DNA from: an uncultured virus (IMG/VR IMGVR_UViG_3300003690_000005)
Lineage: Duplodnaviria; Heunggongvirae; Uroviricota; Caudoviricetes
Direction: 5' to 3' (one strand)
IMG/VR virus record: IMGVR_UViG_3300003690_000005
DNA: 20,000 nt
The notes beneath the pieces are model-generated. The model ran no database searches, was not told the origin of the DNA, and saw nothing but the letters and a program-made list of their open reading frames with translations. Below are positions 1 to 9,033 of the stretch, in pieces; positions within the stretch are counted from its first letter, which is position 1; every line of letters starts with the position of its first letter. The position numbers were made by a program, and so were the translations under genes.

Positions 1-1
1 T

Positions 2-1024
2 TCTAGTGACATAATTAATACATTTGAAACTGCGAAATCGTTTGCTCCGAATTGTCCTATTATCGTTATAACGGCTTATGATGATAAAAATATTGCAATA
101 CAGGCTTTAGGAAATGGTGCTCAAGACTATCTTTTAAAAGATTCTTTAAATCCAGATGTACTTGAAAGAACAATTAAATATGCTGTGATTAGGTTTGATT
201 TACTAAAAGACATACAAACACAACACGAGCGGTTAGAATCTCTAAATAAAGAATTAAGTGCTTTTGCTTATGTGGCTGCTCATGCACTAAAAGAGCCATT
301 ACGAACTGTTTCGAATTATATATCTATTTTTTCTGATAAAAACCAGGATATAGTTGACGCAGAAAGTTCTGCGTATATAGATAAGATATTGATTGCTAAT
401 CGGCATTTAAACGAATTAATTTCTGGTCTTCTAGAATATTCTAAAGTATCTAAACCGCAATACCATATAGTAAACATAAAACATGTGTGTGACGGGGTAA
501 TGTTGATGCTGAAAGACATCATAGAGGATAGTAGAGTTCTGATTTCGTGTAGCGATTTGAACCATAATATACTATGTGACCAGTTGCAATTAGCTCAGGT
601 ATTTCAGAATTTAATATTAAATGCTATTAAATTTCAAGATGTTACTCGTACTGTTGAGATTAATGTTTTGTTTGTAGAAAGACATAGTTATTATGAATTT
701 TCTGTAAGTGATAACGGACAAGGTGTAGATAAAAAAGATTTCAAAAGTATTTTTTATATGTTTAATAAAGGCTCGCAAAGGTGTACAATGGGAAGTGGCA
801 TCGGCTTGTCTGTTTGTCGTAAAATTGTGGAAAGACATGGAGGTAAAATGTGGGTTGATTCTGAAAAAGGTGTTGGTAGTACTTTTTATTTTACAATCTC
901 TAAGGAAATTATAAATGGAGATAATGGACATAATGGAAGATCGGAAATAGAGGATATGTTGCATGATGTGAAAAATGGAGTTCGTAATAAACAATATGAG
1001 AATGCTCTTGCTTTAGCCATTTGA
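2..1024 (+). CDS. Hybrid receiver domain-sensor histidine kinase (REC-HisKA-HATPase), 5' end outside window
   Basis: Frame is open from base 2. Upstream of the listed ORF it reads ...PIIVITAYDD...GAQDYLLKDSL, the C-terminal half of a REC domain. H-box FAYVAAHALKEPLR, N-box NLILNAIKF, G1 DNGQG, G2 GSGIGL. Confidence 0.93.
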   Translation, partial: SSDIINTFETAKSFAPNCPIIVITAYDDKNIAIQALGNGAQDYLLKDSLNPDVLERTIKYAVIRFDLLKDIQTQHERLESLNKELSAFAYVAAHALKEPLRTVSNYISIFSDKNQDIVDAESSAYIDKILIANRHLNELISGLLEYSKVSKPQYHIVNIKHVCDGVMLMLKDIIEDSRVLISCSDLNHNILCDQLQLAQVFQNLILNAIKFQDVTRTVEINVLFVERHSYYEFSVSDNGQGVDKKDFKSIFYMFNKGSQRCTMGSGIGLSVCRKIVERHGGKMWVDSEKGVGSTFYFTISKEIINGDNGHNGRSEIEDMLHDVKNGVRNKQYENALALAI

Positions 1025-1390
1025 CATACTCCCACAACTAAAGTACATGAGATTCTAGGATACAAGCGAAAAATGCTTTTAACAACATTACATTGTTAAA
1101 AGACTGACAAGACAATGCCCTGTCTTGTTATCCTGAAGATCAGGATAAATTCTTGTCAGAGTTTTATTTCTTAAGGCTTCTCAGTATATTAAGTAAATGT
1201 TGTTTTACCAATCTTTTCACTATGATTTCTCTAAAAAACTGAGAGTAGCTATTCAAACTTTTGCACCAGTGTTCTGTTTTTATCTGGCAACCAGTACTTG
1301 ACTTGTCAAAGAACTAACTATATTATCGATATAAGAGTATGAATTTCTTTAATATAATTTTACGAATAAATTCGTGGGTTTTCTTGAAAA
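1021..1390 (-). mobile_element. Non-autonomous IS200/IS605-derived element (no TnpA/TnpB ORF) with structured interior
   Basis: Minus strand ends in AGAATCTCATGTACTTTAGTTGTGGGAGTATGTCAA (right-end-like imperfect hairpin ending TCAA) and begins TTTTCAAGAAAACCCACGAATTTATTCGT (left-end-like), preceded by TTAT. Several internal perfect stems. Exact left boundary is inferred. Confidence 0.72.
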
Positions 1391-1406
1391 ATAACTTATA
1401 AACAAT

Positions 1407-1478
1407 GTCGCCTTAGTTTAATGGCAGAATATCTCCCTTTCAAGGAGATGGTGGCGGGTTCAACTCCCCCAGGCGGCA
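1407..1478 (+). tRNA. tRNA-Glu(TTC)
   Basis: Acceptor GTCGCCT/AGGCGGC, anticodon arm TCTCC-CTTTCAA-GGAGA, T arm GCGGG-TTCAACT-CCCCC (one mismatch). CCA not encoded. Confidence 0.85.
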
Positions 1479-1500
1479 TTTTTTTTTGAAAGGATTAGAT

Positions 1501-2181
1501 ATGTCACAAGTTTTAGAATTCCTGACCCCGACAAATGGTATTGATATCGCAGAAGAAATCATATATAGATTAACCGAAGAGGCAACTCCAGAAAATATGC
1601 ACTGTGAATATGATGTATCACATGGCAGAGTTGTAGGGTCAAGTGCAAACACTTGGTTTGTCTTTGATACCGTAGATGGTGAAATTATAGATGAATTTAA
1701 AACGAATATTTTTTCTTTTAATTTAACAGATGAAGAAAAAGAGGCAGTTAATAAATTTAAAAATGATATTATTCAATATATCAAGGATACTGGGATAGAT
1801 GCTATTAGAGGGAAAATAAGAGAAGTGTTAATTCCTGATAGCGATCCAGACATGATGCCTTTACATGAGATTAGGATAACGGATGTAGAAATTGTTGATT
1901 ATTCTTCAGTTCCTTTTTATCATAGGTTTTTAATAAAATTGAAGAAGATACAAGGGACGAACATTGATACTGAAGCAGTTATAAGAATGCTTGCCGATTA
2001 TCAAGAAGATACAGGTGAAAAAGACATGGATAAAGCTTTTAAAGCATTAAAAGATAAGCCTGAATTTGAAGGAGTTTTAGGTGTTGTTCAAGGAGAGAAA
2101 TTTTTGAATGATGTGAGCATAGCGATATTTGTTGATTATTCTTTCTCTGAAACAATCCTTGAAGCAATACAATCGAATTGA
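1501..2181 (+). CDS. Hypothetical acidic protein
   Basis: Long ORF; ATG at 1501 follows AAGGA and is preferred over TTG at 1486. No recognised motif. Confidence 0.8.
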   Translation: MSQVLEFLTPTNGIDIAEEIIYRLTEEATPENMHCEYDVSHGRVVGSSANTWFVFDTVDGEIIDEFKTNIFSFNLTDEEKEAVNKFKNDIIQYIKDTGIDAIRGKIREVLIPDSDPDMMPLHEIRITDVEIVDYSSVPFYHRFLIKLKKIQGTNIDTEAVIRMLADYQEDTGEKDMDKAFKALKDKPEFEGVLGVVQGEKFLNDVSIAIFVDYSFSETILEAIQSN

Positions 2182-2219
2182 AATTTCTTCTCCAGAATTA
2201 AAATATCTGTTTTAACACA

Positions 2220-2250
2220 GCAGCGATGGTGAAATCGGTATCACATAATG
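2220..2250 (+). pseudogene. tRNA 5'-half fragment (Leu/Ser/Tyr-type D arm)
   Basis: GCAGCGA-TG-GTG-AAATCGGTAT-CAC gives an acceptor 5' strand plus D arm. No matching 3' half (TCGCTGC) or T arm nearby. Confidence 0.5.
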
Positions 2251-2271
2251 ATTTATTTTAACGAAAAGGTG

Positions 2272-2305
2272 ACTCCTATGTAGGATACTACACTTACATA
2301 GGAGT
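2272..2305 (+). promoter_or_regulatory. 11-bp perfect hairpin occluding the Shine-Dalgarno of the ORF at 2311
   Basis: ACTCCTATGTA (2272-2282) is the reverse complement of TACATAGGAGT (2295-2305), which contains AGGAG just upstream of ATG 2311. Confidence 0.6.
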
Positions 2306-2310
2306 TAAAA

Positions 2311-2733
2311 ATGAGTTATAGCGCGTTGCGTCAGCCTCACACGACGCAAGAGAAACGTATGTGGTTTGCTTCTTTAGACGAAGCAGGTTGCAACTTATCT
2401 CGTGCCCGCAGAAGCCCAAGAAATTTAGCCGATGCTTGGGATGATATTGGTCGTAGTTCTCATAATTGTTGGAAACAGCACAGAAAAACACAATATCGTG
2501 TGAAAGATGCTTTCTCCAGAAGAAAAAAAGATAGTTCTATATATGGTGAGTCGATGAGCCGTAGAGATCACTGGCATCTTGAACATTACCGTTGTGAGTA
2601 CAAGAGATGTAAGTCGTGCATAAAAAGTGGTATTTGGAATGATTACGATAAGCAATTTGCTCGTCGAATGAAGAAAAAAGAGCCGCTTATTGTAGAGTAT
2701 TATTGGAATTTTTTGAATGGTCTCGTGGTGTAA
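2311..2733 (+). CDS. Basic hypothetical protein (RxPxTTQExR...AWDD...WKxxRKTQY pattern, recalled from phage hypothetical proteins)
   Basis: ORF with AGGAG RBS; its 3' end overlaps tRNA-Asp. Confidence 0.75.
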   Translation: MSYSALRQPHTTQEKRMWFASLDEAGCNLSRARRSPRNLADAWDDIGRSSHNCWKQHRKTQYRVKDAFSRRKKDSSIYGESMSRRDHWHLEHYRCEYKRCKSCIKSGIWNDYDKQFARRMKKKEPLIVEYYWNFLNGLVV

Positions 2734-2791
2734 TTTGGTAGCATGACAGATTGTCTATCTGTTGGTGCCGATTCGATTTAGGTCGAGATCG
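2719..2791 (+). tRNA. tRNA-Asp(GTC), somewhat degenerate
   Basis: Acceptor GGTCTCG/CGAGATC, discriminator G, anticodon arm ACAGA-TTGTCTA-TCTGT, T arm GCCGA-TTCGATT-TAGGT with a mismatch. Pyrimidine at position 37. Confidence 0.72.
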
Positions 2792-2811
2792 TTTAGTTAT
2801 AGGTTGAAACA

Positions 2812-3108
2812 ATGGAAGACGAACTAAAAGATAATTGGGAAAAGTGGTGTAAAAACCCTGAATTTACACATCTTGATCTAGGTGTATGGGGCAAAACAGG
2901 ACACAATGATGGTGGTTTTAAGATTCTGTGGGGCATAGAGGGTATCGGTTTTGGAGAACTTGTATTTGTTAAAAAAGGTGATAAGGTAGAATGTGACAAC
3001 GAAACAATGAGTGAAAAATTTTGTAGTATTGTTTTAGAGCAATTTTTAAAGAAAACGTTTTTCAGGAACGAAGTTCCAGACCACAAACTGACTGTAGAGG
3101 AAAAATAA
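2812..3108 (+). CDS. Hypothetical protein
   Basis: ORF abuts the next gene (TAA-ATG). Confidence 0.7.
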   Translation: MEDELKDNWEKWCKNPEFTHLDLGVWGKTGHNDGGFKILWGIEGIGFGELVFVKKGDKVECDNETMSEKFCSIVLEQFLKKTFFRNEVPDHKLTVEEK

Positions 3109-3363
3109 ATGGCTAAAAGTATGACAAAAAAGACTGAAGATAAGGTTGCGTTTACCACTCCAAGCCGGTATGGTTCTCATGCTGCTATGATTGATAACGA
3201 ACAAACAGAACAATTAAAAGATAAAAACCTTGTAGTTCTCAAAGACGACGCTGGTTCTTATGTTACAGAACGCAAAAGATTAGATTCAGGTGGAGCAGAT
3301 CCAAACCGTTACTCTTTACAAGAAACTAGAATATATTCTCTAGAAAAAGCTCTCAATGGCTAA
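3109..3363 (+). CDS. Hypothetical protein
   Basis: GAGG RBS; translationally coupled to ligA. Confidence 0.7.
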   Translation: MAKSMTKKTEDKVAFTTPSRYGSHAAMIDNEQTEQLKDKNLVVLKDDAGSYVTERKRLDSGGADPNRYSLQETRIYSLEKALNG

Positions 3364-5437
3364 AGACCTTTTTGAAGATCTTTTTGATTCCGAGTCTGTT
3401 ATTGTTGAAGCAGATGAGGCAAAACAACTTGAAACCCTCATAGAGCATTTAGATACGCTTTACGAGGCAGGTGAAGATTGCATACACCCTGACACAGAGC
3501 GGTTGGTTGCTGATGCTCAATACGATGATTATAAAAATAAGTTATTTAAAGCAAAACCTAATTCGTATATATTTGAAACAGTTACTGCATCTAAATTAGA
3601 TTCACAGGGAGGCATTGTTGTTCATGACCCTCCTATGACATCAATTTCTAAAATTAATGGTACAGACGAAGAGAAAGAAGAAGATCTTACAGAATGGTTA
3701 AAAGCGTCAGCAAAATCTGAAAAAGATTTTGTGATGGGATACAAACATGATGGAGTCGCATGTTCTTTATATTATAAGGATGGTGCTTTAGTATCAGCGG
3801 GACTCAGACCCAGAGATGGGATTCATGGTGAAAATGTTGTAGATAATGTTCAATTTGTTAAAGACGTGCCATTAGAATTGCCTGTTAAGGTCACATGTGT
3901 GATTAGAGGTGAGTTAGAGTGTCTTATCTCTGTATTTAACTCTCTTAATGGTAGCGACACAGTAGATCAAAGAGTCTTTGCTAATCCAAGAAATTATACA
4001 GCGGGAAGCGTTAGACAATTTAAAGACTGCCGTAAAACAGGGAAGAGAAATTTATCATTTACAGCATATTCTGTTGAGAATCTAGATAATCCGCCCTATA
4101 AGACAGAAATAGAAAGAGCAAAATGGGTTAGTGGTGTTCTTGGAATACCTTTTATTGAACTGGTTTATTTTAAGCACAAAAAATTAGAAGTCATGGAAGA
4201 GGTATCTGGCGATCTCGATTTTGAGGTTGATGGAATTGTTATTTCAGTCAATGATCTTGAAGAACAAGAACAATTAGGTAGGCATGGAGATCAAGCAACA
4301 GGAAACCCCAAAGGAAAGATAGCATGGAAATTCAGAGACGAAATCGCCAGAGTAATAGTTAAAAATATTCGTTGGCAAGCAGGTAGAACAGGAAAATTGA
4401 CTCCTGTGCTAGAATTTGATGCGGTTCAATTAGAAGGCACACAAGTAACTCAATGTACGGCCCACAATGCCGGTGTCATAATGACACATGCTATACAGTC
4501 TGGCGTGGAAGTCGAAATTAAAAAATCAGGGAAGATTATTCCTAAATTTGAAAGAGTTATTTCTAAAATAGATGGTACTTTTGACTTAAATGTTGATAAG
4601 TGTCCTTCGTGTGGATCTGCTGTTGCTATTAATAAAAGTGGTTCTAAAGATAAAGGCGACTGGACATGTGAATTTGTTTGTAAAAACAAAGAATGTCCAG
4701 CAAAGCACATCAAAGGTTTGATGCATTATTTAACAACGATTGGGGTTAAAGGACTTGCAGATAGCACAATTAAGAAATTAATAGAGAGCGGGTTGGTTAA
4801 GGTTAGATCAGATTTCTATTATCTTGATTTTAATGATTTACAGAATAAGGTTGGTTTTACTGAAAGACAATCTGCACTTATTTTGGCTAGAATATTTATG
4901 CTTTCTAGTCCAGAGAAAAATAAGGACACAGATAAACTTTTATTAGAAGCAAAGGATAAGAAAACAGTTTCTGTCCCTATAGAAAAGTTTATTGCTGCTT
5001 TAGGTATTATAGGTGCAAGCAAAGGAACTGCGAGAGCATTAGTTTCTCATTTTTCAGGTGATCTTAATAAAATAATGAATGCTTCTATAGATGAATTAGT
5101 AAAAGTTGAAGATATTGGAGAGAAAACAGCTATTGCTTTAGAGAAGTTTTTTGAAGATAATGATGGAGGAATTGATGAATTACTACGATTTGTAGAATTA
5201 GAGTTACCGAAGACTGGTAAATTAAGTGGTAAGACTTTTGTATTCAGCGGAAGTTTTCCAGATGGAAAAGAAACATGGCAAAACGCTGTTGCTGAATTAG
5301 GAGCGAAAATAGGAACCTCGGTATCTAACAAAACTGATTATGTTGTTATTGGTCCTGGTTCTGGTGCTAAAGAGAAAAAAGCTACAGAATTAGGAATAAC
5401 AAAATTAGACATTGAAGATCTACAGGAGATGTTGTAA
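3356..5437 (+). CDS. ligA: NAD-dependent DNA ligase
   Basis: Adenylation motif KHDG, RGE motif, FANPRN, EVDGIV, OB fold GRTGKLTPV, Zn finger CPSC...CxNxxC, HhH repeats, C-terminal BRCT (LSGKTFVFSG...SVSNKTDYVV). Confidence 0.97.
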   Translation: MAKDLFEDLFDSESVIVEADEAKQLETLIEHLDTLYEAGEDCIHPDTERLVADAQYDDYKNKLFKAKPNSYIFETVTASKLDSQGGIVVHDPPMTSISKINGTDEEKEEDLTEWLKASAKSEKDFVMGYKHDGVACSLYYKDGALVSAGLRPRDGIHGENVVDNVQFVKDVPLELPVKVTCVIRGELECLISVFNSLNGSDTVDQRVFANPRNYTAGSVRQFKDCRKTGKRNLSFTAYSVENLDNPPYKTEIERAKWVSGVLGIPFIELVYFKHKKLEVMEEVSGDLDFEVDGIVISVNDLEEQEQLGRHGDQATGNPKGKIAWKFRDEIARVIVKNIRWQAGRTGKLTPVLEFDAVQLEGTQVTQCTAHNAGVIMTHAIQSGVEVEIKKSGKIIPKFERVISKIDGTFDLNVDKCPSCGSAVAINKSGSKDKGDWTCEFVCKNKECPAKHIKGLMHYLTTIGVKGLADSTIKKLIESGLVKVRSDFYYLDFNDLQNKVGFTERQSALILARIFMLSSPEKNKDTDKLLLEAKDKKTVSVPIEKFIAALGIIGASKGTARALVSHFSGDLNKIMNASIDELVKVEDIGEKTAIALEKFFEDNDGGIDELLRFVELELPKTGKLSGKTFVFSGSFPDGKETWQNAVAELGAKIGTSVSNKTDYVVIGPGSGAKEKKATELGITKLDIEDLQEML

Positions 5438-6564: not shown

Positions 6565-6900
6565 ATGTCAAAAACAAAAGTTGTTAATGTTAAAAAGAAA
6601 GATTTTGATGTCTATGTCGGCAGAGCAGTGCCTACTTATTACGATGCAAGGATACAAGCAGGTAGTGAATTCGCTAATCCATTTAGCATAAATGATCGGG
6701 TAACTAGAGATCAGGCTATTGAACAATACAGAGAACATATTATTAGTAAATTGAAAAAAAATCCTAAGTTGAGAAATCGGTTAATGCAAATGGAAGGTAA
6801 AAAATTAGGATGCTGGTGTAGTCCTCGTCGATGTCATGGCGATGTATTGGTTGAATTAATTGAAGAAAATGTCAAGAAAAGAGACGATGAAGTACTATAA
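6565..6900 (+). CDS. DUF4326 domain protein
   Basis: DVYVGR...GSEFANPF...GKKLGCWCSPRRCHGDVL signature. Confidence 0.88.
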   Translation: MSKTKVVNVKKKDFDVYVGRAVPTYYDARIQAGSEFANPFSINDRVTRDQAIEQYREHIISKLKKNPKLRNRLMQMEGKKLGCWCSPRRCHGDVLVELIEENVKKRDDEVL

Positions 6901-8520: not shown

Positions 8521-9033
8521 ATGAATCCAACAGGTCAAAATCAAGGTAAACTTGTCCGTTATCCAGATCCTATTTTACGTAAAAAATGTGCAAAAGTTGA
8601 AGATATGGGATTTGTGCAAGGTGCAGCACAAATTATGTTGATGCTTATAGGTCAAGCAAATGTTAAAGGGTTAGGGTTAGCTGCACCGCAAATGGGATTT
8701 GATTTAAGGTTTTTTGTTGTTAAGGATGGGGAGCAGAATGTCTTTATTAACCCAGAGATATTAGAAGCGAGTAAGAAAACAGAAGTTCAAGAAGAAGGAT
8801 GTCTTAGTATCCCATATGTTAAAGCACATGTTAATAGACATAAATCTATAAAAATAAAAGCGACAGATGGAGATGGGCAAGAATTTATTTTAGAAGCAGA
8901 AGATGATTCGGCTAGGGTTATACAACACGAGATGGATCATCTCAATGGAGTGCTTATTATTGATAAACTAACTCCTATGGACAAAGTGGCTCAGAAACAG
9001 GTGCTAAAGAGATACTATAATATTAAAACATAA
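8521..9033 (+). CDS. def: Peptide deformylase
   Basis: All three motifs present: GLGLAAPQ, EGCLS, QHEMDHLNG. Confidence 0.97.
   Translation: MNPTGQNQGKLVRYPDPILRKKCAKVEDMGFVQGAAQIMLMLIGQANVKGLGLAAPQMGFDLRFFVVKDGEQNVFINPEILEASKKTEVQEEGCLSIPYVKAHVNRHKSIKIKATDGDGQEFILEAEDDSARVIQHEMDHLNGVLIIDKLTPMDKVAQKQVLKRYYNIKT

Follow-up and report, generated by a model that had tools for sequence, protein, structure and literature searches.

In IS608 of Helicobacter pylori, the left cleavage and target site, TTAC, is located 19 nt 5' of the foot of the left hairpin, and the right cleavage site, TCAA, is located 10 nt 3' of the foot of the right hairpin. A 4-nt guide that precedes the foot on its 5' side recognises each site (AAAG at the left end), and altering the left guide changes the target in a predictable way (PMC3201880; He et al. 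2011). Minimal gene-less IS elements resembling PATEs are reported from Geobacillus stearothermophilus, and PATEs often encode omegaRNAs that would need TnpB in trans, as stated in a preprint (Meers et al., PMC10055086). Here we describe a stretch of 377 nt, read on the minus strand, that is very probably a single ORF-less IS608-like IS200/IS605 derivative of the PATE type, namely a decaying relic with an omegaRNA module. The original prediction had flagged a slightly shorter span (1021-1390) as an ORF-less element with IS200/IS605 ends, a reading that proved largely right, and all the strings and stems that it quoted are present where it placed them.

The window, that is, the whole 20-kb stretch of DNA analysed in this study, appears to be a phage-like marine contig. 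Near-identical DNA was found in sequencing runs labelled as hydrothermal vent, seawater and marine metagenomes; none of the 15 runs listed was an RNA run. All ORFs of at least 140 aa are on the plus strand, PHROG and Pfam matches include an NAD-dependent DNA ligase, a peptide deformylase and a number of families whose function is unknown, and there are two tRNA genes, tRNA-Glu and tRNA-Asp (2718-2792). Megablast of the window against phage records gave no match. No relatives of the kinase encoded at the start of the window were found in IMG/VR or in metagenome contigs, and none of the ORF 3' of the tRNA in IMG/VR. The element forms the spacer between this kinase ORF and the tRNA-Glu gene (Table 1). 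On direct reading of the sequence, the kinase ORF would keep its last residue and terminate in TAA if 1021-1397 were deleted.

Table 1. Features of the element and its immediate neighbours (positions in the window).
Feature	Coordinates	Strand	Basis and remarks
Receiver-HisKA-HATPase kinase ORF	2..1024	+	ORF list and domain matches; stop codon 1022-1024 inside the element's right end
Putative guide flank of a read-through omegaRNA	1001..1020	-	Position; antisense to the last kinase codons
Whole ORF-less mini-element, 377 nt (probable)	1021..1397	-	Right-end homology; left-end-like sequence with IS608 geometry; right end 1021, left end 1397
omegaRNA 3' module (P1-P2-P3 plus 10-nt tail)	1021..1134	-	R1 match; homologous to RNA encoded at tnpB 3' ends
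10-nt tail AGTATGTCAA, ending in the TCAA cleavage site (1024->1021)	1021..1030	-	Invariant in all aligned relatives
Right-end subterminal hairpin P3	1030..1055	-	Foot 1051/1031; GAAT guide 1055->1052; fold as in L023 when RNA
P2 hairpin, perfect 10 bp	1076..1102	-	Homologous position in the R1 match and alignment
P1 hairpin, 8 bp, GGGCAT loop	1107..1128	-	Perfect in the window; family covariation; 20-nt core match
P0 hairpin, perfect 9 bp	1128..1148	-	Inverted repeat; just upstream of the omegaRNA homology, outside the R1 match
Promoter-like TTGACT-17-TATTAT	1298..1326	+	Consensus match only, 10/12; inside the element, points at tRNA-Glu
Left-end-like segment	1358..1397	-	19 nt from target site to foot; AAAA guide 1382->1379; residual 5-bp hairpin 1375->1362; foot CCC/AAA unpaired
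TTAT, presumed target/TAM tetranucleotide	1398..1401	-	Outside the element; flanks the left end; AAAA/TTAT pairing
tRNA-Glu (UUC)	1406..1479	+	tRNA search; 4 nt past the target tetranucleotide

A scaffold of the omegaRNA type had been proposed on the minus strand, running up to the right end, and this was borne out by a covariance model. The model, R1, was built without the window from the family ends in alignment A3, in which 13 diverse ends are represented by their final 93-122 nt; of these, only L011 lacks a TnpB-size frame upstream, and the window was likewise left out of the alignment. The whole of R1 (model positions 1-114) aligned to 1134->1021 on the minus strand of the window, with a score of 71.8 bits (E = 2.2e-12), compared to 8.8 bits for the second best of the 12 window matches listed. 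Across the fetched loci, complete modules mostly scored 70-112 bits, divergent modules (L027 and the Poribacteria copies) 54-61 bits, and places with the terminal hairpin only mostly 33-50 bits. The family layout runs from P1, with a GGGGCAT-type loop, through the composite stem P2 and a conserved linker to the right-end hairpin P3 and the 10-nt tail, and in the window the scaffold homologous to tnpB 3'-end RNA ends at the right-end cleavage site. A single match was obtained by blastn against phage records, in which window positions 1020-1066 (47 nt) are 87% identical to MT839900, directly behind a frameshifted TnpB gene with OrfB_IS605, HTH_OrfB_IS605 and Cas12f1-like TNB domains. The 20-nt P1 core of the window is identical to those of L119, L104 and L129, and in the RNAalifold analysis of the 13-sequence family alignment 7 of the 8 P1 pairs were changed on both sides. 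In the family, the P1 region also encodes the C-terminus of TnpB.

The comparison with covariance models suggested in the original prediction thus turned out well for the TnpB-linked end model with its covarying P1, but not for Rfam, in which only tRNA was matched at the gathering score and permissive settings added one sub-threshold snoRNA match. One might take the Rfam result, together with the failure to find another copy in the sequence searched, to mean that the locus has no transposon origin and is either a structured RNA native to the contig or an intergenic spacer in which palindromes cluster by chance. However, this account has next to no likelihood, given the distance between the R1 match and the next one, the direct identity to TnpB-linked ends and the IS608 geometry at both ends.

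The module of the window also differs from those of its relatives. P2 is remodelled into a plain hairpin with no inner hairpin, the partner of its ancestral outer stem is not recognisable, and an extra 8 nt including a U-run follow it. Homology to L119, L104 and L129 ends at the 5' edge of P1 (1134), and the part of the scaffold 5' of P1, which lies inside tnpB in the relatives, is absent from the window. A conserved stem 5' of P1 was not found in the TnpB-linked relatives, for which RNAalifold offered just a 3-bp long-range pairing without covariation.

The right end has the IS608-like arrangement, with a hairpin, a 4-nt guide and TCAA 10 nt 3' of the foot, although the hairpin is weakened as DNA. 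Three positions of P3 can pair as G-U only; as single-stranded DNA it does not fold (MFE 0, compared to -5.8 to -7.2 kcal/mol in three relatives). At the other end, TTAT (1401->1398) is followed by exactly 19 nt, including AAAA (1382->1379), up to CCC at the foot (1378->1376). From this TTAT, the 19-nt spacing and TCAA (1024->1021), the element would therefore extend from 1021 to 1397. When the element was compared to the fetched loci by blastn, the left ends of L015, L023, L054 and L019 were matched in the correct orientation (85-88% identity over 25-28 nt, E 0.012-0.04). However, the left-end model R2 scored only 8.0 bits on the left end of the window (E 2.7, rank 9 of 15), because AAA replaces the GGG of the relatives in the 3' arm, so that 3 of the 8 pairs no longer form. 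An inner pair of the left hairpin also differs on both sides, being A-T in the window and C-G in the relatives, and as single-stranded DNA the hairpin folds at -2.9 kcal/mol compared to -8.8 (L023) and -5.2 (L119). From its geometry and the 25-28-nt blastn match, 1358-1397 looks like an IS608-type left end that has eroded. Thus, of the predicted IS200/IS605 ends, the right one is established by homology and layout, and the left one is a candidate with IS608 geometry and a short blastn match, for which the model score was not significant. Since the end hairpins are weak as single-stranded DNA, both TnpA substrates are impaired, and we infer that this copy is no longer mobile.

The pairing of guide and target could also be followed in natural variants. 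In alignment A5, with 15 left ends, an AAAG guide went with TTAC in 11 of 11 cases and an AAAA guide with TTAT in 4 of 4, a count that is partly by construction, as the regular expression sought TTAC or TTAT upstream, and in which two of the four AAAA/TTAT ends are copies of one family. The IS608 rule for the left guide and its target is therefore readable from such variants, and the window belongs to the AAAA/TTAT type.

As predicted, the element holds no substantial ORF: the largest ones within 1025-1405 are 30-34 aa, and no protein-coding gene lies between the ends. The GC content of the element is 0.305 compared to 0.362 for the window, and its interior (1135-1361) has a GC content of 0.286, below 99.5% of same-size windows, and matched neither the fetched loci nor phage records. 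A TnpB gene was not found anywhere in the 20-kb window by ORF domain scans and tblastn, and 12 TnpB and 2 TnpA proteins of relatives gave nothing at E <= 0.1 by tblastn against the window. The only local match, of 8 residues, proved to be the translation of P1 itself; other matches were weak (E > 0.1) and were regarded as noise.

Further copies in different flanks, for which the original prediction suggested a search, were not seen either. The contigs of four sequencing runs contained no second copy at 82% likeness or above. Among those of their contigs that were placed on positions 1-3000, none skipped 1021-1397 and none carried the element in other flanks; in this comparison runs X2-X4 were uncovered at 1001-1100, and no contig joined across 1021-1397. 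A lone fragment of 50 nt with low identity, from another X1 contig, corresponded to 1304-1353, and the seawater run X3, from another study, agreed with the window at every position across the left junction (1123-1585). Scanning metagenome contigs for the P1 core returned only three loci, all in other elements, and the exact 23-nt end string had no match in IMG/VR. Neither the run contigs nor the metagenome-contig scan contained an empty site, that is, an element-free allele, and neither the four runs nor the P1-core scan gave any sign that this copy is mobile. Because neither a second copy nor a gene for TnpB or TnpA was present in the sequence searched, the proposed service to a TnpB encoded elsewhere is conjecture.

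Relatives of the end are widespread. The 22-nt end motif, with one free position, was found at 57 loci in IMG/VR and at 68 loci in GTDB species genomes, spread over many phyla, and the boundaries were fixed by the copies of one family in different flanks, which span about 1676 nt between a TTAC at the left and the motif end at the right. For a survey of linked genes, we considered the 64 loci at which R1 reached at least 55 bits (37 of 56 viral and 27 of 68 genome loci; L083 scored 53.8 bits and was therefore not included), representing 56 distinct insertion sites. A frame of at least 300 aa was located directly upstream at 29 of these sites, while five had only a frame of 150-299 aa (one a frameshifted tnpB and four with the frame far upstream), nine had no frame of 150 aa or more, and at the remaining 13 the upstream sequence was too short to judge. 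Two loci had their linked ORFs scanned with Pfam, and both encode TnpB: L119, from a Candidatus Anoxychlamydiales MAG as is L104, encodes a TnpB of 383 aa, and L129, from a metagenome contig, a Y1 TnpA and a TnpB of 377 aa. Some gene-less loci are plain truncations (L104, L008/L042 and L055); others possess a left end and are complete mini-elements (L011, 323 nt; L068, 216 nt; L102, 178 nt), or belong to a multi-copy Poribacteria family of about 425 nt present in several flanks. Gene-less elements that keep the omegaRNA module thus recur in other contigs.

The inner part of the element is rich in hairpins. Perfect inverted repeats of 10, 8 and 9 bp are found at 1076-1102, 1107-1128 and 1128-1148, respectively, and the repetition of ACAAGA on either side of P0 gives an alternative outer stem (1104-1112/1151-1159; full span 1097-1112/1151-1166). 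The whole window has 10 perfect hairpins (arm at least 8, loop 3-8) compared to 2.4 +/- 1.6 in 50 block shuffles, and three of the ten are packed into the 73 nt of 1076-1148. The last 155 nt of the minus strand (1175->1021) fold as RNA with z = -3.5. For the full 300 nt of the original prediction, z was unremarkable on the minus strand (-1.1) and somewhat lower on the plus strand (-2.3). P0, P1 and P2 are perfect, whereas the hairpins at both ends carry mutations, a pattern that plain neutral decay would not predict.

This contrast between inner and end hairpins leaves a small chance for use of the RNA or for a terminator/promoter block on the plus strand. In the latter case, the spacer would have been exapted, with the hairpins after the kinase stop codon serving as a terminator or RNA stabiliser and the AT-rich interior as a promoter for tRNA-Glu and the genes downstream. 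The inner hairpins, being perfect palindromes, form on the plus strand as well, the 300 nt are the more structured on that strand, and 1128-1148 was flagged as terminator-like on that strand; the promoter-like sequence at 1298-1326 is the third best plus-strand match of the window, and the two better sites are also intergenic. The survival of the inner hairpins beside decayed end hairpins would fit such a role as well. However, the promoter and terminator calls are consensus matches only, and the U-runs after the hairpins are poor. We regard this exaptation as unlikely.

A working stand-alone omegaRNA cassette, as in the original prediction, is possible but unsupported. Its minus-strand transcript, started within the element, would bind a TnpB supplied by the phage or its host and target the TTAT-flanked empty site, thereby keeping or spreading the element. 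Consistent with this, the R1 scaffold match is of full length, and P1 is perfect and identical to those of TnpB-linked relatives; the 155 nt that fold well would begin near a possible start at 1176; and omegaRNAs of PATEs acting in trans have been proposed (PMC10055086). In addition, all three substitutions in P3 keep G-U pairing in the minus-strand RNA, in which the L023 fold is retained, while the plus-strand RNA, like the single-stranded DNA, is unfolded. However, three C-to-U and no G-to-A changes are weak evidence for selection on the RNA (p about 0.125), and the retained P3 fold is far weaker than in the relatives (-4.6 kcal/mol compared to -12.2 for L023 and -10 to -12.2 for the relatives overall). 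Transcription also speaks against it. The best minus-strand promoter match in the element (1211->1183, 9/12) is at chance level, with dozens alike in the window, and the window as a whole has fewer promoter-like matches than its shuffles (60 compared to 71.5 +/- 8.2). The remodelled P2 with its U-run could moreover end transcription before P3 and the guide, scaffold sequence upstream of P1, some of which may be needed, is missing, and there is no TnpB within the 20 kb. The RNA of about 290 nt starting near 1315 that had been proposed was not supported, as no more than the final 114 nt are homologous to omegaRNA and direct reading found no usable -10 hexamer (A2/T6 at 16-18 nt) for TTGACA at 1309->1304. 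The string labelled boxA-like (about 1303-1315, minus) is present, but nothing in the analysis supported the label. By its position past the right end, 1020->1001 is where the guide proposed in the flank would lie. All these points considered, we think it quite improbable that the cassette works.

We favour the reading as a worn IS608-like derivative, under which the element would have arrived by TnpA-mediated single-strand insertion 3' of TTAT, between the kinase gene and tRNA-Glu, and would now be an immobile relic. It has kept its right end, together with the final 114 nt of a TnpB omegaRNA scaffold; the left end would be recognisable but eroded, and all that once lay between the ends, any tnpA or tnpB included, would be gone or replaced by very AT-rich sequence. 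Arrival as a mini-element and shrinkage in place are indistinguishable. A minus-strand transcript through 1021 would have the form of an omegaRNA with a guide corresponding to the empty site, and a compatible TnpB in trans could therefore cut the excised or element-free allele, after which recombination could restore the element. It is a long shot that the relic is kept by the phage for its minus-strand RNA, which would load a host TnpB and direct it to sister phages that lack the element, at their TTAT-flanked kinase/tRNA junction. If this were true, the element would behave in mixed infections as a homing-like cassette without a nuclease gene of its own, and the intact inner hairpins beside the decayed end hairpins would mean that selection had acted on the RNA rather than on mobility.

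These results suggest that: the locus, located in a phage-like marine contig, adds to the cases in which the guide-RNA module of TnpB has survived the loss of its nuclease gene; and R1, R2 and the end motif may allow such relics to be annotated quickly, without mistaking them for new small-RNA genes. The copy in the window leaves knowledge of TnpB biology unchanged.

Compared to IS608 as described in PMC3201880, the element has the same 19-nt left spacing, 4-nt guides and TCAA at 10 nt, and its layout implies that no target duplication would arise. It differs in having TTAT with AAAA instead of TTAC with AAAG, and in lacking both tnpA and tnpB, with a total of 377 nt; the likeness is drawn through the published rules. 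The PATE-like elements of G. stearothermophilus described in PMC10055086 are likewise protein-less, with IS200/IS605 ends, and in both cases the right end directly adjoins the omegaRNA scaffold, which makes the flank the source of the guide; the element in the window would also depend on TnpA and TnpB in trans. However, unlike them, it is a single copy in what was searched, both of its end hairpins are degraded, its P2 is remodelled and it has no convincing promoter; moreover, it belongs to an IS608-like sequence family and is located in a phage-like marine contig rather than in a bacterial chromosome.

Among the loci compared here, L129 and L119 share with the window an identical P1 core over 20 nt, the same order of P1, P2 and P3 with the 3' tail, and about 70% identity over the 114-nt module, but they encode TnpB proteins of 377-383 aa (OrfB_IS605 plus Cas12f1-like TNB) and L129 a Y1 TnpA as well, whereas the window has neither. 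The elements of about 425 nt in Candidatus Poribacteria MAGs (L066, L083, L067, L090 and L096) resemble it in using TTAT with AAAA, in the variant of the end motif, in consisting of a left end, the module and a right end without an ORF, and in having a hairpin just 5' of P1. However, they are present in several flanks, with an intact left-end hairpin, one more hairpin within the module and, on reading of the sequence, an internal TTGACA-17-TAGTAT on the omegaRNA strand, and their interior is unlike that of the window. Gene-less IS200/IS605 elements bearing an omegaRNA are thus already in print as PATEs (PMC10055086), and the window holds a further member of this kind. The traits that distinguish this copy are its worn state and the contrast between its mutated ends and its three perfect inner hairpins.

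The stop codon of the kinase ORF beside the mini-element (the ORF-less IS200/IS605 derivative) is supplied by the right end of the transposon. This hybrid sensor kinase belongs to a contig of otherwise phage-like look. On the other side, the gap between the end of the mini-element and the tRNA-Glu gene is 8 nt, and both tRNA genes, Glu-UUC and Asp-GUC, are set among ORFs without family matches. A 10-bp inverted repeat, read from the sequence, directly precedes the ATG of an ORF at 2311-2733 (+) and may be a regulatory hairpin. The contig also encodes host-like functions, namely a peptide deformylase, an NAD-dependent DNA ligase and a DUF4326 protein.

Features of the window accompanying the mini-element
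Feature	Position	Strand	Domains or basis
Hybrid sensor kinase ORF	2-1024	+	partial receiver, HisKA, HATPase_c
tRNA-Glu (UUC)	1406-1479	+	
10-bp inverted repeat	about 2270-2306	+	reading of sequence
tRNA-Asp (GUC)	2718-2792	+	
NAD-dependent DNA ligase	3356-5437	+	
DUF4326 protein	6565-6900	+	
Peptide deformylase	8521-9033	+	

In the alignment of TnpB-linked relatives (A6), RNAalifold predicted a 3-bp long-range pairing of columns 60-62 with 222-224, in which the GAY codon from the 'RD' motif conserved in TnpB lies opposite the GUC of the 3' tail. The changes at this pairing were wobble-to-Watson-Crick only, without true covariation.

Several fetched loci sharing the right-end motif had other arrangements. 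In L055 (about 2380-2522), a full omegaRNA module starts about 45 nt past the apparent 3' end of a tRNA gene, with TTAC 14 nt upstream of P1; this locus has neither a left end nor tnpB. In L010, L029 and L052 (around 2480-2522 in each), the right-end tail and hairpin make up a single long perfect palindrome, in which an inverted tail is joined to the hairpin plus tail, and the omegaRNA module is absent. This palindrome resembles two right ends joined in inverted orientation. L017/L026 (2021-2522) and L043 carry a ~500-nt element whose two ends share one ~40-nt left-end-type sequence, with the right-end tail coming after the second copy; this element is likewise devoid of the omegaRNA module.

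The Poribacteria family (L066, L083, L067 and L096, all from MAGs) is gene-less and multi-copy. Its members have one hairpin directly 5' of P1 and an additional hairpin placed between P2 and P3, and their omegaRNA strand bears TTGACA-17-TAGTAT about 60-90 nt past the left end.
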